NCBI GenBank assembly: GCA_016184225.1
Contig: JACPDA010000004.1
Span: forward strand, 208,372-272,371
Origin: Candidatus Daviesbacteria bacterium
Lineage (GTDB): Bacteria > Patescibacteriota > Microgenomatia > Daviesbacterales > UBA10151
Direction of reading: 5' to 3'
Length of the DNA: 64,000 bases
Part shown: piece after piece, positions 1,686 to 63,502 of the stretch
How positions within the stretch are numbered: position 1 is the first letter of the stretch
How the letters are laid out: every line of letters begins with the position of its first letter
Made by a program: the position numbers and the translations under genes
Notes under the pieces: generated by a model
Told to the model about the DNA's origin: nothing
The model's database searches: none
What the model saw: only the letters and a program-made list of their open reading frames with translations

Positions 1686-3176
1686 ATGGCAGAACAAACA
1701 CGACCACCAATAGTTACAATCCTGGGCCATGTTGATCATGGTAAAACTACCCTACTTGATTTTATCCGTAAATCCTCGGTAGCTACCAAGGAACACGGTG
1801 GAATTACCCAACACATTGGGGCTTACCAAATAGAAGTGCAAAGCGAAAAGGGCAAAGTGCAAAGTGGACTTAACACTCAGCACTCCTCACTTATCACTTT
1901 TATTGATACCCCCGGGCATGCCGCCTTTGAAAAAATGCGCTCCCGCGGCGCGAATGTGGCTGATATTGCTATTTTGGTGGTGGCGGCAGATGACGGGATT
2001 ATGCCGCAGACTATTGAAGCTATTAAACATATCCAGGAGGCTAAAGTATCAATGATTGTGGCAGTTAACAAGATTGATTTGAGTGGAATTGACCAAAATA
2101 TCCAGCTGGCCAAGATCAAAAAGCAATTGTCTGACCAAAAAATCAATCTGGAAGAATACGGCGGGGACGTGCCGCTGCTGCCTCTTTCGGCCAAAACCGG
2201 AGAAGGGGTGGATAAACTTTTGGAGATGATACTTTTAGTCTCAGAGATGCATGAGTTAAAAGGCGACCCGGCACTTCCGCCAGCCGGGGTCATTATTGAA
2301 GCTATGCTGGATAAATTCAAAGGGCCGATTGCCACTATTTTAATCAGGAATGGCACTTTGAAAAAAGGAGATCAAATAGAAGTGGGCGAAATTAAAAGTA
2401 AGGTCCGGGGGATGTTTGATTTTAGTGGTAAACCAGTAGATTCAGCCGGGCCGTCAACTCCGGTGGAGGTGTTAGGTTTGGAAGCAGTGCCGGTTGTGGG
2501 GGCAGTTTTAGGGGAGTTGGCTGAGGTAAAAGAGGCGGAGGTAATACAATCTCTGGTAGAGAAGTTACAACAAGGTGACACTAAAACCCTGAAGGTGATT
2601 ATCAAAGCTGATAAACAAGGGTCGCTAGAGGCAATTCAAACTTCTTTAGAAAAATTTAATGCAGAGCGAAAAGTAGTTGATTATATTTCTACCGGAACAG
2701 GAGATATTGGGGAAGAAAACATTAAACTGGCCGCCTCGGTGGGAGCAATTGTGATTGGATTTAATGTCAAAGTTGCCTCAAATGCCCAAAAAATGGCTGA
2801 GAATGAACATGTGCTGATTAGAACTTACAATATTATTTATGAACTGCTGGAGGATGTAGAGGAAGTGGTCAATACTTTGCTTGAAGTGGGGCAGTTGGAA
2901 GAAGTTTTAGGGAAGGCCAATATTATTGCTGAGTTTCCTCACGGCAAAACCGAGAAAATTGCCGGGTGCCGGATGACAGAAGGGACAATTGCCAAAGGGC
3001 AAAAGATCAGAATTGTGCGGGAGGGAGTGCTGATCGGTGAAACTAAGCTTAAATTTTTGAAAAAGGTGAAAGAGGAAGTTAATAAGGTGGAAAAAGGTAA
3101 TGATTGCGGCATGCTCTTTGACCCGCCGATGGATTTTCAAATTGGAGACACCGTGGAATCATTTAGAGTGATTTGA
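1686..3176 (+). CDS. infB: Translation initiation factor IF-2 (short form, G domain at N-terminus)
   Basis: G1 [22 protein letters not shown] motifs; position after nusA. Confidence 0.9.
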   Translation: MAEQTRPPIVTILGHVDHGKTTLLDFIRKSSVATKEHGGITQHIGAYQIEVQSEKGKVQSGLNTQHSSLITFIDTPGHAAFEKMRSRGANVADIAILVVAADDGIMPQTIEAIKHIQEAKVSMIVAVNKIDLSGIDQNIQLAKIKKQLSDQKINLEEYGGDVPLLPLSAKTGEGVDKLLEMILLVSEMHELKGDPALPPAGVIIEAMLDKFKGPIATILIRNGTLKKGDQIEVGEIKSKVRGMFDFSGKPVDSAGPSTPVEVLGLEAVPVVGAVLGELAEVKEAEVIQSLVEKLQQGDTKTLKVIIKADKQGSLEAIQTSLEKFNAERKVVDYISTGTGDIGEENIKLAASVGAIVIGFNVKVASNAQKMAENEHVLIRTYNIIYELLEDVEEVVNTLLEVGQLEEVLGKANIIAEFPHGKTEKIAGCRMTEGTIAKGQKIRIVREGVLIGETKLKFLKKVKEEVNKVEKGNDCGMLFDPPMDFQIGDTVESFRVI

Positions 3177-3201
3177 CTTTTTAAGCCTGTAGGATTAGAA
3201 T
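3173..3201 (+). promoter_or_regulatory. sigma70-like promoter TTGACT-17-TAGAAT, 9 nt before the ATG of the 3211 gene
   Basis: TTGACT at 3173-3178, 17-nt spacer, TAGAAT at 3196-3201. Confidence 0.5.
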
Positions 3202-3210
3202 CTGCTTGTT

Positions 3211-4005
3211 ATGTCAGCTGAAGCACCAAAAGTACAAGATGCAGATGTTAGAAGAGCAGCAAGGTCACGTTTGCAACCGGAAGGGAATTGGATGGGACGG
3301 GCTTATTCACTCAATAGAATTTTTGATGGTCTCAATTCACGTCTTGATAATGGTGATATTGATGGGTTTTTAAGATTAAATAAGTTAGCTGTTCACAGAA
3401 TTACTTCATACTGGCTGCCTATTGCCAAATTTTTTATCATGGCTAAAACACCATGGTACCTTATAGAACCACGTATACTTTATTCCAGTTATTCTTATCG
3501 AGATCGAGATGGTAAGGTGGATCTTTCTTGTATGACTGCTCGTTCAACTGATAGGCAAGCAGGAAGCAAATTTATGAGGCGGGTTATTACAGATGACGGG
3601 TTGCAGGAGGACAACTGTAGAATTAAGACTTGGGTAGAAGAGGGTGGTCAACTTTACAACCCAGAAACTTGGCTTGTGATGGATATAGAACAGAGATGTA
3701 CAATTCCTCCAGACAGCTATGGTTTTTTTATTGGCATTAATAACTACAAAGGAGGGTTATTACAGGAAATAGTTAGAACACCGGGTCTGAAAGGATGGGA
3801 TTTGGTAACAGCATTAGGGATCTTCAGAGGGGAATTATCACCAGAGAAACTAGTAAGAATACCGCCTCCGGTAGAAGGAATTAGGGTGGTGGGAGCTGGT
3901 GTTTATGGCTCTGGCGAACCAAATGAGGTACATCAAAAAGGACTCAGAGATGGTATGTATCTAATACCTAGAGAACAATTTTCCCAATATTTCCCTCCTG
4001 CTTGA
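3211..4005 (+). CDS. Hypothetical protein (264 aa, Trp-rich, no recognised domain) occupying the usual rbfA/truB slot
   Basis: Long ORF with its own promoter; GLNSRLDNGDIDG segment loosely resembles a pol-beta NTase G-x9-DxD motif (weak). Confidence 0.5.
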   Translation: MSAEAPKVQDADVRRAARSRLQPEGNWMGRAYSLNRIFDGLNSRLDNGDIDGFLRLNKLAVHRITSYWLPIAKFFIMAKTPWYLIEPRILYSSYSYRDRDGKVDLSCMTARSTDRQAGSKFMRRVITDDGLQEDNCRIKTWVEEGGQLYNPETWLVMDIEQRCTIPPDSYGFFIGINNYKGGLLQEIVRTPGLKGWDLVTALGIFRGELSPEKLVRIPPPVEGIRVVGAGVYGSGEPNEVHQKGLRDGMYLIPREQFSQYFPPA

Positions 4006-4030
4006 AATTATGGGCTAGTGGTGGTAGAAT
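4002..4030 (+). promoter_or_regulatory. sigma70-like promoter TTGAAA-17-TAGAAT upstream of the 4043 gene
   Basis: TTGAAA 4002-4007, 17-nt spacer, TAGAAT 4025-4030, 12 nt to ATG. Confidence 0.5.
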
Positions 4031-4042
4031 CGCTCTACTTAA

Positions 4043-61801: not shown

Positions 61802-63136
61802 ATGCAGAGAACATTTGGACCGATTAATTCGTCTGCCGGTAACGGCGGACAATCAAATATAGATGTAACAGAGCTTGCCAAGCGCGAGGGAATTCTAGAA
61901 GAAAGAGAACGGCAGATTAGTGAAAAACAAAAACTGATTGATGAAAAACTGGAGCAACTTGAAAAAGTCCGCAAAGATTTAGTTTCCAAGTTGGAAAAGG
62001 TTTCTTCTATGTCCAAAGAAGAAGCTCAAAAGATTCTGCTGGAAAACATAGACAAAGAGCTGGCCGCTGAAATCTCCAAAAGAATCAAAGAAGCTGAGGA
62101 AGAGATTAAGCTCACGGCAGATGAGAAAGCAAAGGAGATCCTCGCGGATGCCATGGTTCATGGAGTAACAGATTATATTTCTGAGTTTACAACTTCCAAG
62201 ATTAAGCTTCCCGATGAAGAGATGAAAGGTCGGATTATTGGTAAAGAAGGTCGGAATGTCCGGACTTTTGAACAGGTAACAGGTGTTGATGTGGTGATGG
62301 ACGATGAGATGCCTGATACTTTGATACTATCCTCCTTTGATCCGATCAGGCGGGAGGTCGCTAAAGTGGCGTTGGAACGGTTGATGGAAGATGGCCGAAT
62401 CCAGCCGCAGCGAATAGAAGAAATTGTGGCAAAAACTGAAGGAGACATTAATAAGCTAATGAGAGCAGCCGGAGAAAAACTTTGCCATGATGTCGGGGTT
62501 TATAATTTGCCGGTTGAACTGGTGGATATAATCGGCCGATTTAAGTACCGTTATTCATATGGCCAGAATTTAATTTTACATACCCAAGAGGAAACCCAAA
62601 TTGGTATAGCCTTAGCGCGAATGATCGGGGCGGATGTGAATGTAGTGCGTCTTGGTTGTTTGCTGCATGATGTCGGCAAAGTGGCAATGGAAGAGGAAGA
62701 AGGTACGCATGTTGAAAAAGGCGTACAGATAGCTAAAAAATTCGGCATGCCGGAAAAGATTATTAATTGTATTGCTGAACACCATGAAGATAAACCCTTT
62801 TCAGCTATTGAATCGGTGCTGGTTTATATTGCCGATGCCATATCTGGGGCTAGGCCGGGAGCAAGACATGAGAATGTCGGAGATTATATTAAGAGATTGG
62901 ATGATATTGAGAACATTGCCACCTCTTTTGAGGGGGTAGAAAAAGCTTTTGCCGTACAAGCCGGCCGGGAAGTGAGAGTCATTGTAACTCCGGAAAAGGT
63001 TCCGGACAGCGAGCTGCCAAAATTAGTACATGACATAGCAGAGCGTATTTCCAAAGAAGTGATGGTACCGGGTGCGGTTAAGATTACAGCAATCAGGGAA
63101 ACCCGCTACTCTGAATCCACTATGACAAATCCATAA
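61802..63136 (+). CDS. rny: Ribonuclease Y (KH + HD domains; no N-terminal TM anchor evident)
   Basis: KH GKEGRNVRTFEQVTGV; HD LLHDVGK..; coiled-coil N-terminal region. Confidence 0.8.
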   Translation: MQRTFGPINSSAGNGGQSNIDVTELAKREGILEERERQISEKQKLIDEKLEQLEKVRKDLVSKLEKVSSMSKEEAQKILLENIDKELAAEISKRIKEAEEEIKLTADEKAKEILADAMVHGVTDYISEFTTSKIKLPDEEMKGRIIGKEGRNVRTFEQVTGVDVVMDDEMPDTLILSSFDPIRREVAKVALERLMEDGRIQPQRIEEIVAKTEGDINKLMRAAGEKLCHDVGVYNLPVELVDIIGRFKYRYSYGQNLILHTQEETQIGIALARMIGADVNVVRLGCLLHDVGKVAMEEEEGTHVEKGVQIAKKFGMPEKIINCIAEHHEDKPFSAIESVLVYIADAISGARPGARHENVGDYIKRLDDIENIATSFEGVEKAFAVQAGREVRVIVTPEKVPDSELPKLVHDIAERISKEVMVPGAVKITAIRETRYSESTMTNP

Positions 63137-63194
63137 TAAGATCCTTCGTCGGCTTAATGCCTTCTCAGGACGAAGCAGAGCTTCGATTTGGGGC

Positions 63195-63223
63195 TTGCCA
63201 AAGAGTAAAACATCTGGTAATTT
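63195..63223 (+). promoter_or_regulatory. Promoter TTGCCA-17-(TG)TAATTT; predicted TSS coincides with the second in-frame ATG (63230) of hup
   Basis: TTGCCA 63195-63200, TAATTT 63218-63223. Confidence 0.4.
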
Positions 63224-63229
63224 ATGGCC

Positions 63230-63502
63230 ATGACTAAAAACCAACTGATTGAAAAAGTAGCCAAGAAGGCAAACTTAACCAAGAGAGCCGCATCAGATGC
63301 GGTCAACACTACATTCAATTTAATCAGAGACGGATTAGTTAGAGGAGAAAAAGTTGTTATTACGGGTTTTGGAACATTTTTAATTAGATCCAGAGCAGCC
63401 AGAAGAGGCAGAAATCCTCAAACCGGGGAAACTATCCAAATCCCCAATAAGAAGACTCCGGGTTTTGTATCAGGCAAGACATTGAAAAGAGTAATCAAAT
63501 GA
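63230..63502 (+). CDS. hup: DNA-binding protein HU
   Basis: MTKNQLIEKVAKK..GFGTF..RAARRGRNPQTGE..; start given at the second ATG (track ORF starts 6 nt earlier at 63224). Confidence 0.85.
   Translation: MTKNQLIEKVAKKANLTKRAASDAVNTTFNLIRDGLVRGEKVVITGFGTFLIRSRAARRGRNPQTGETIQIPNKKTPGFVSGKTLKRVIK

Follow-up and report, generated by a model that had tools for sequence, protein, structure and literature searches.

In a 64-kb stretch of DNA with 41% G+C (hereafter the window), the first genes of many transcription units are preceded by a hexamer resembling the -10 promoter element that ends 6 or 7 nt before the ATG. Its sequence relatives place the organism close to Daviesbacteria, among the uncultured bacteria of the candidate phyla radiation (CPR). 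The initial annotation had proposed that promoters are placed so that transcription would start on the A of the start codon, and every sequence-level test run here agrees with that proposal. Very probably, these are leaderless starts of the kind termed 'group C' in other bacteria. The hexamers would be -10 elements of sigma-70-type promoters, mostly of the extended -10 form (TGnTAnnnT) with a weak or dispensable -35 element, and the ATG of a transcription unit's first gene would follow 6-7 nt downstream. Since initiation by RNA polymerase normally falls 7 nt beyond the -10 element, transcription would begin on the A of the ATG, and the mRNA, with neither a 5' leader nor a Shine-Dalgarno (SD) sequence, would be translated from its 5'-terminal AUG. 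Operon-internal genes in the same window would be read from GGAGG-type SD sites. What is shown here is the motif and where it lies, together with the promoter anatomy, the specificity for ATG, and the conservation among relatives.

Hexamers of this type had been listed at first for ten starts, all on the plus strand, and all ten are present, seven of them 6 nt from the ATG and three at 7 nt. The TG extension, described as usual, occurs in eight of the ten genes. At the 6-nt spacing, ftsK has TGgTATAAT (hexamer at 10951-10956, ATG 10963; 10948-10965), a gene for an HTH_25 protein has TGgTAAAAT (ATG 14292; 14277-14294), alaS has TATAAT without TG (15495-15500, ATG 15507; 15495-15509), a gene for a 281-aa protein has TTGACA-17-TGgTATTAT (ATG 30157; 30122-30159), adk has TGaTATAAT (49312-49317, ATG 49324; 49309-49326), recA has TTGAAC-16-TGgTATCTT (ATG 59945; 59911-59947), and hup, encoding HU, has TTGCCA-17-TGgTAATTT (ATG 63230; 63195-63232). 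At 7 nt are tsaC (Sua5/YrdC; TGgTACAAT, ATG 13103; 13087-13105), a 731-aa gene whose promoter, TGtTAAAAT, is located within the 3' end of alaS (ATG 17372; 17356-17374), and a 215-aa gene with TATAAT and no TG (ATG 48453; 48440-48455). The tsaC hexamer lies at 13090-13095, one base away from the coordinates first assigned to it (13091-13096).

Three further cases are added here. A 74-aa GreA_N-like gene has TGgTAGGAT 6 nt before ATG 32138 (32123-32140, plus strand), a 267-aa gene has TGcTACCAT 6 nt before ATG 57879 (57864-57881, plus strand), and a 188-aa gene on the minus strand has TTGACA-17-TAAGAT 7 nt before ATG 14230 (14228-14266). The last is divergent from the HTH_25 gene at 14292, and both members of the pair look leaderless. 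Three starts with the box at 8 nt are borderline: ATG 14967, with ATGACA-17-TGcTATATT and an implied leader of 0-2 nt (14950-14969, plus strand); tuf, with TAAAAT and no TG before ATG 35612 (35598-35614, plus strand), which is SD-led in relatives L098 and L106; and a 101-aa open reading frame (ORF) on the minus strand, with TGcTATACT before ATG 55033 (55031-55050). Two plus-strand genes serve as comparators. TTGACT-17-TAGAAT stands 9 nt before ATG 3211 (3173-3213), a near-leaderless arrangement with a predicted leader of 2-3 nt, and in infA TGaTAAAAT lies 16 nt before ATG 50667 (50642-50669), giving a short leader without an SD sequence.

The register of these boxes is sharp. The window holds nine matches to TGNTANNNT-N6-ATG, where dinucleotide shuffles predict 2.16; not one of 100 shuffles yields as many, and plus-strand ORF starts account for eight of the nine matches. 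With N7 before the ATG, TGNTANNNT gives four matches (2.1 expected), two of them at ORF starts, and with N5 it gives two in the window (2.0 expected), neither at an ORF start. Within 120 nt upstream of the window ORFs, 11 extended -10 boxes lie at 6-7 nt, or 5.5 per position, against a density of 0.05-0.36 per position at 10-120 nt, so that the excess at this position is 15- to 100-fold. In a syntenic 50-kb control region of Escherichia coli, the count is 0-1. We also collected 80 alaS neighborhoods from Patescibacteria (1.40 Mb, 1514 first-ATG ORF starts), with 6474 internal in-frame ATGs as a control. Here 44 starts have an extended -10 box at 6 nt, where the distribution peaks; counts of 17, 15, and 14 form a shoulder at 7-9 nt, the background is about 3, and a box at 6 nt precedes only one of the 6474 internal ATGs. 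The enrichment of -10-like hexamers just upstream of starts is a sharp 6-nt peak with a shoulder reaching 9 nt, in the window and in the 80 alaS loci alike. Chance matches in A/T-rich intergenic DNA might be suspected in a genome of this base composition, in which a bare TANNNT is frequent (some 25-30 per 1000 positions upstream of any ATG), but the shuffles, the positional excess, and the replication of the peak in 80 other loci, together with its absence at internal ATGs and in E. coli, effectively rule out such an origin.

The anatomy of the sites is that of a promoter. For 145 starts from the 80 alaS loci and the window, picked solely for TANNNT at 6 nt, T and G are present at -3 and -2 of the hexamer in 53% and 48%, respectively, and TGn is found in 35%, whereas internal ATGs, as a control, have it in 2%. 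A -35 element at 17-bp spacing shows up as T-T-G at -23 to -21 (48%, 44%, and 28%). Within the hexamer, positions 4 and 5 favor A and position 3 favors A or T. The base preceding the ATG is a pyrimidine in 78% of the starts and in 36% of the control, a bias in line with the Y(-1)R(+1) rule for start sites and with the 7 bp that separate -10 element and start site across 49 bacteria (PMC12641261). The TG at -15/-14, the TTG of the -35 element, and the -1 pyrimidine all emerge unselected, and none is seen at internal ATGs. In having TG one base upstream of TAnnnT, an often poor -35 element, and transcription predicted to begin 7 bp past the hexamer (PMC12641261), the sites resemble extended -10 sigma-70 promoters in general; compared with those, only the fixed ATG register is special and the promoter itself is unremarkable.

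A different reading of the same hexamer is that it is an A/T-rich, non-SD ribosome-binding or enhancer motif within a longer leader, as in the 'group B' of Bacteroidetes type, with the transcription start further upstream. The window does offer some material for this reading: starts are generally preceded by A/T-rich sequence, a separate TAAATT-/TAAAAT-like hexamer peak abuts the ATG, and short leaders without an SD sequence exist in infA and its orthologues. However, a translation motif would not bring with it TG at -15/-14 or TTG at 17-bp spacing. It would also be expected before operon-internal genes, which carry GGAGG-type sites instead; a motif at ribosome-binding distance before all genes, as in group B, is not what the window contains. 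Further, TGnTAnAAT is found at longer and variable distances before leadered genes (infA and its orthologues and the gene at 55098), which is the behavior of a promoter, since a ribosome-binding motif would keep a fixed distance. We consider the ribosome-binding reading very unlikely, and the evidence supports identification of the hexamer as a sigma-70 extended -10 promoter element.

The leaderless reading also accounts for the choice of start codon. Boxes at 6-7 nt number 35.8 per 1000 candidate codons for ATG, 4.5 for GTG, and 0.6 for TTG, and all 16 candidates in the window start with ATG. A requirement for a 5'-terminal AUG would produce such a preference, which would stay unexplained, precisely 6-7 nt after the box, if the promoters were real and the annotated ATGs wrong, so that start codons further downstream followed ordinary leaders. 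In favor of this possibility, the products of some candidates, the genes at 30157, 48453, 57879, and 14230 (minus strand), have no Pfam match and hence no external check of the N-terminus. For adk, hup, alaS, recA, and tsaC, Pfam profiles align from residues 1-18 of the proposed N-termini, the P-loop of adk begins at residue 7, so that its true start cannot be further downstream than ATG 49324, and N-termini are common to orthologues. We attach little probability to misplaced ATGs. Translation from the predicted leaderless AUGs is indirectly supported, in that family profiles and orthologues begin at these codons.

The same register, read together with homologues, corrects two starts in the way first suggested. 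For alaS, orthologues begin with MTSQ at the equivalent of ATG 15507, the box lies 6 nt upstream of this codon, and the Pfam model aligns from residue 5, pointing to ATG 15507 rather than TTG 15471. For hup, the Pfam model of HU matches the protein starting at ATG 63230 from its first residue onward, again with a box 6 nt upstream, in preference to ATG 63224. The recA start at ATG 59945 matches independent gene calls on three metagenome contigs.

Leaderless-type starts are combined in the window with a conventional mode of initiation. About 75 ORFs are present, 13 with a box at 6-7 nt and three more at 8 nt. Counting as genes with their own promoter space those with an upstream spacer of at least 25 nt or with divergent transcription (about 38), 12-15, or about a third, look leaderless. 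The heavy reliance on leaderless initiation that had been claimed is therefore sustained insofar as about 12-15 of 38 is in the usual range for leaderless-rich bacteria, and it has to be toned down in that these genes are not a majority. A GGAGG, AGGAG, or GGAG core, or a weaker AGGA or AAGG core, is present 4-13 nt upstream of 21 genes, so that a functional anti-SD can be assumed. These genes are mostly operon-internal or closely spaced, and most overlap or barely clear the previous gene. Such a distribution supports an organism that mixes leaderless first genes with SD-led internal ones, as far as sequence can tell.

Two genes, rpsM and metK, had been put forward as SD-led contrasts. The GGAGG of rpsM is genuine, ending 10 nt before ATG 51148 (51133-51150, plus strand), and that of metK is not an SD sequence: its GGGAGG forms the 3' side of a terminator hairpin, 15 nt from ATG 56720. 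The metK leader (56549-56722, plus strand) has a predicted SAM-I/IV riboswitch aptamer at 56549-56686 and a terminator hairpin with a U-run at about 56683-56710. The aptamer match scores 40.6 bits (E = 1.7e-5), 0.5 bit under the Rfam gathering score; at the gathering threshold the only Rfam match in the window is a tRNA-Pro, and SAM-I/IV appeared only with an E-value threshold. Folding of the leader as a whole gives a z-score of -6.2. The long ORF opens with a GTG at 56653, but the Pfam N-terminal domain begins only at its residue 32, which places the true metK start at ATG 56720.

The register is conserved among relatives: orthologues of alaS, ftsK, tsaC, the HTH gene, the 14230 gene, the AAA gene at 8099, and ruvX keep the box 6-7 nt from the ATG at 55-90% protein identity and with differing spacer sequences. 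In alaS the box stands 6 nt before the equivalent ATG in the Daviesbacteria-like loci L001, L002, L004-L007, and L021 and in several more distant ones, among them L009, L034, L035, L049, L075, and L079, with spacers that include agcctc, gggcac, agcttc, accaac, ttcccc, and accttc. The ftsK box is kept at 6-7 nt in L001 and L004, and the tsaC arrangement is repeated in L001 and L005. Orthologues of the minus-strand 14230 gene in L004 and L007 have TTGACA-17-TATGAT-7-ATG, and those of the 14292 gene in L004, L006, L007, and L021 have a box at 6-7 nt behind other spacer sequences. The orthologue of the 17372 gene in L005 has its box at 8 nt. Leaderless adk is limited to the window and L088 (TGaTATAAT-6-ATG), because most adk orthologues directly follow secY and have no promoter of their own. 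The Daviesbacteria-like loci are the richest, with 16 extended boxes at 6-7 nt among 120 ORFs, and other Patescibacteria have the 6-7 nt peak plus a second mode at 21-40 nt.

The infA gene has a variable arrangement of its own. A strong TGnTAnAAT promoter is always present in infA and its orthologues (L086-L112), at 6 to about 33 nt from the ATG, and the short leaders have no SD site.

Several observations count against the leaderless interpretation or narrow it. The transcription start sites are predicted, for this organism and its close relatives alike, and it is from the DNA that we infer both the start site and the mode of ribosome loading. Some -10 hexamers (TATCTT, TAATTT, TACCAT, and TAGGAT) are weak and depend on the TG extension, and the cases at 8-9 nt may give leaders of 1-3 nt and not strictly leaderless mRNAs. 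The architecture turns over among relatives: orthologues of the 17372 gene in L001, L004, L007, and L008 have a leader of 30-36 nt behind the same TAAGAT box, and ftsK in L007 is SD-led (GGAGG). The signal is also weak in the neighborhoods of ribosomal-protein operons. In a second comparative set of 80 secY neighborhoods (0.91 Mb), the 6-nt peak reaches 7 over a background of 2-3, as expected because this set consists mostly of long ribosomal-protein operons. Finally, a generic two-hexamer promoter scan of the window is near chance (49 matches versus 38.6 and 42.2 expected), so that the evidence comes from position and not from promoter counts. That scan confirmed two-hexamer promoters at 3173, 4002, 14266 (minus strand), 14930, and 50622; the counts of the generic promoter and terminator scans together are close to the shuffled expectation and are uninformative on leaderless starts.

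The arrangement has well-described counterparts elsewhere. The group C of GeneMarkS-2, mainly Actinobacteria and Deinococcus-Thermus, comprises leaderless bacteria with a Pribnow box 6-8 nt from the start in 25-50% of operons (PMC6028130). The window shares with members such as Mycobacterium tuberculosis and D. deserti the Pribnow box 6-8 nt before first genes, SD sequences on the remaining genes, and a similar share of transcription units; the register of the box, its promoter nature, the SD sites of internal genes, and the AUG start are all found here. It differs from the high-G+C actinobacteria of this group in its host, a Patescibacteria/CPR member of about 41% G+C with a reduced ribosome, and from group C systems in general in that its promoters are mostly extended -10 (TGn) and its leaderless starts are predicted. 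A full-text literature search of incomplete coverage returned no description of leaderless genes in Patescibacteria, the CPR, or Saccharibacteria, and a 2024 review of the biology of Patescibacteria is silent on both promoters and translation initiation. Work on CPR ribosomes goes no further than reporting that the anti-SD motif is missing from some Parcubacteria (PMC9297842). The mechanism is well known, and the host lineage appears to be new to it. Automated annotation with GeneMarkS-2 would model such starts silently.

A third start context, absent from the initial annotation, consists of 7-nt-periodic tracts without an SD sequence. Tandem arrays with a lag of 7 nt are over-represented relative to neighboring lags, numbering 18 in the window, 112 in the alaS loci, 117 in the secY loci, and none in the 50 kb of E. 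coli. At lags of 6 and 8 nt there are 0-1 in the window, 10-17 in the alaS loci, and 12-24 in the secY loci, and the E. coli control has two at lag 6 and none at lag 8. Tracts in the window lie at 189-257, 5596-5672, 36799-37211, 41498-41605, 42248-42326, 43315-43426, 46599-46691, and 50908-50970, and others occur at many sites in the comparison loci L001-L164. Starts without an SD sequence behind such tracts are those of nusA (265), pnp (5677), rpsJ (37227), rpsC (41611), rplP (42329), rplN (43431), and rplO (46696), and of 130 arrays, 31 finish no more than 15 nt from a start. In other genomes, arrays precede rpsH, secY, adk, rplP, rplD, rplB, and rpsE. The units include AGAGTC, AGTGCA, AGGCAAC, and AATTAGA; the heptamer differs from site to site and, at the same junction, between genomes, as in rplN of the window and rplN of L100. 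Neither phase-variation microsatellites nor an assembly artifact was retained as an explanation, the former because the copies are imperfect and the arrays only 4-5 copies long, and the latter because arrays are present in many independent assemblies.

Several of the arrays are inverted pairs, in which a purine-rich arm pairs with a G-poor arm ending just before the next ATG, and these pairs form long predicted hairpins with regularly spaced bulges (z-scores of about -2.5 to -7.0 for six of eight junctions folded). The purine-rich arm often encodes a low-complexity C-terminal tail of the upstream ribosomal protein. Such tails beyond the Pfam domain, encoded by purine-rich 5' hairpin arms, are seen in L22 (41501-41585), S17 (43315-43406), and S5 (46599-46664), and those of L22 and S17 reach 30-60 residues. 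Between tuf and rpsJ, a gene of family PF05635 ('23S rRNA intervening-sequence protein', a four-helix-bundle family) is flanked by inverted heptad arms at 36799-36817 and 37193-37211, which can pair over 19 nt with 89% complementarity. The same gene-in-hairpin arrangement is repeated between secY and adk on an unrelated metagenome contig (L123, 5688-6118).

Heptad repeats are also found inside genes. A hairpin at 1834-1901, with an AAGTGCA-type arm and its complement, lies in frame within infB (1686-3176). Compared with Thermus IF2 (PDB 4b44), it adds 14 aa to the G domain of the protein, and it resembles the in-frame palindromic elements of Rickettsia. Six Patescibacteria genomes (L010, L019, L020, L038, L059, and L062) have a GAATCAA/GAATTAA-type 7-nt array at a shared position in the alaS coding sequence, about 11100-11145 in those loci, which the alaS of the window lacks. 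A perfect array of five AAATTCC units (20928-20973) in an MltG/YceG-like gene (20569-21525) encodes the peptide SKFQIPNSKF. A recent insertion was considered for this array and rejected, as orthologues at 60% identity share the peptide repeat, which marks it as old coding sequence.

The closest published analogues of the 7-nt tracts, although not of the leaderless starts, are the TAACTGA direct repeats, also heptamers, that MacGregor (2015, PMC4679880) described in Beggiatoaceae, Cyanobacteria, and Bacteroidetes. Both consist of tandem 7-nt units ending a few nucleotides before starts that have few SD sites, and both are located inside ribosomal-protein operons and before pnp (PMC4679880). Unlike the TAACTGA repeats, the heptamer here varies by site, so that no single conserved heptamer is present, several arrays are inverted pairs that form hairpins, and some are in frame inside genes.

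The hairpins could be coupling devices that the upstream ribosome unfolds, loop-outs by which a remote SD sequence would come near the AUG, or processing sites of RNase III type, like rRNA intervening sequences. If the last were true, RNase III-type cleavage would make new 5' ends by the AUG and so generate leaderless or near-leaderless mRNAs by processing; the PF05635 gene in a hairpin loop, in the window and in L123, fits this idea and is no proof of it. A scheme of three initiation modes, in which most promoter-proximal genes are leaderless, many internal genes use SD sites, and 7-nt hairpins replace the SD sequence before internal genes such as nusA, pnp, rpsJ, rpsC, rplP, rplN, and rplO, is a speculative and rather unlikely extension. 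In rplX (43776-43818) and rplN (43376-43433), a GGAGG or AAGGAG stands 24-41 nt before the ATG with a small local hairpin between, and folding could bring the SD sequence and AUG to normal spacing. Restoration of SD-AUG spacing by an intervening hairpin is an arrangement familiar from gene 38 of phage T4.

Pfam matches in the window identify nusA, infB, rpsO, pnp, RNase J, ftsK, tsaC, alaS, ruvX, rpsL, rpsG, tuf, the S10, spc, and alpha ribosomal-protein operons, adk, infA, metK, recA, recX, RNase Y, and hup; fusA, rpoB/C, secY, and map were labeled without Pfam, from gene size and location and from the syntenic region of E. coli. Every 4-kb bin has a positive GC skew, and nearly all genes are on the plus strand. 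The whole window apparently lies on one leading-strand replichore, with unusually strict gene co-orientation. The nearest relatives of its AlaS (58-65% identity) come from metagenome assemblies of Candidatus Daviesbacteria and Microgenomates, the remainder of the top 80 are other Patescibacteria, and an identical recA protein is found only on short metagenome contigs. Sequencing runs that contain this recA are SRR12113425, SRR12113428, and SRR12113390. We take the organism to be ultrasmall and of groundwater type.

What is gained is taxonomic breadth and not a new mechanism, the phenomenon itself being textbook knowledge. Gene finders that assume SD sequences will misplace some starts, and the -10 register can fix start codons in Daviesbacteria-like metagenome assemblies, as it does for alaS and hup. 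For the genetics of cultivable Patescibacteria, a TGnTATAAT-N6-ATG cassette should suffice for expression. Patescibacteria have small genomes and trimmed ribosomes, and leaderless initiation, which requires neither a leader nor contact between SD and anti-SD sequences, is often regarded as the ancestral mode. A third large lineage beside the two classic leaderless-rich ones would bear on the evolution of initiation mechanisms.

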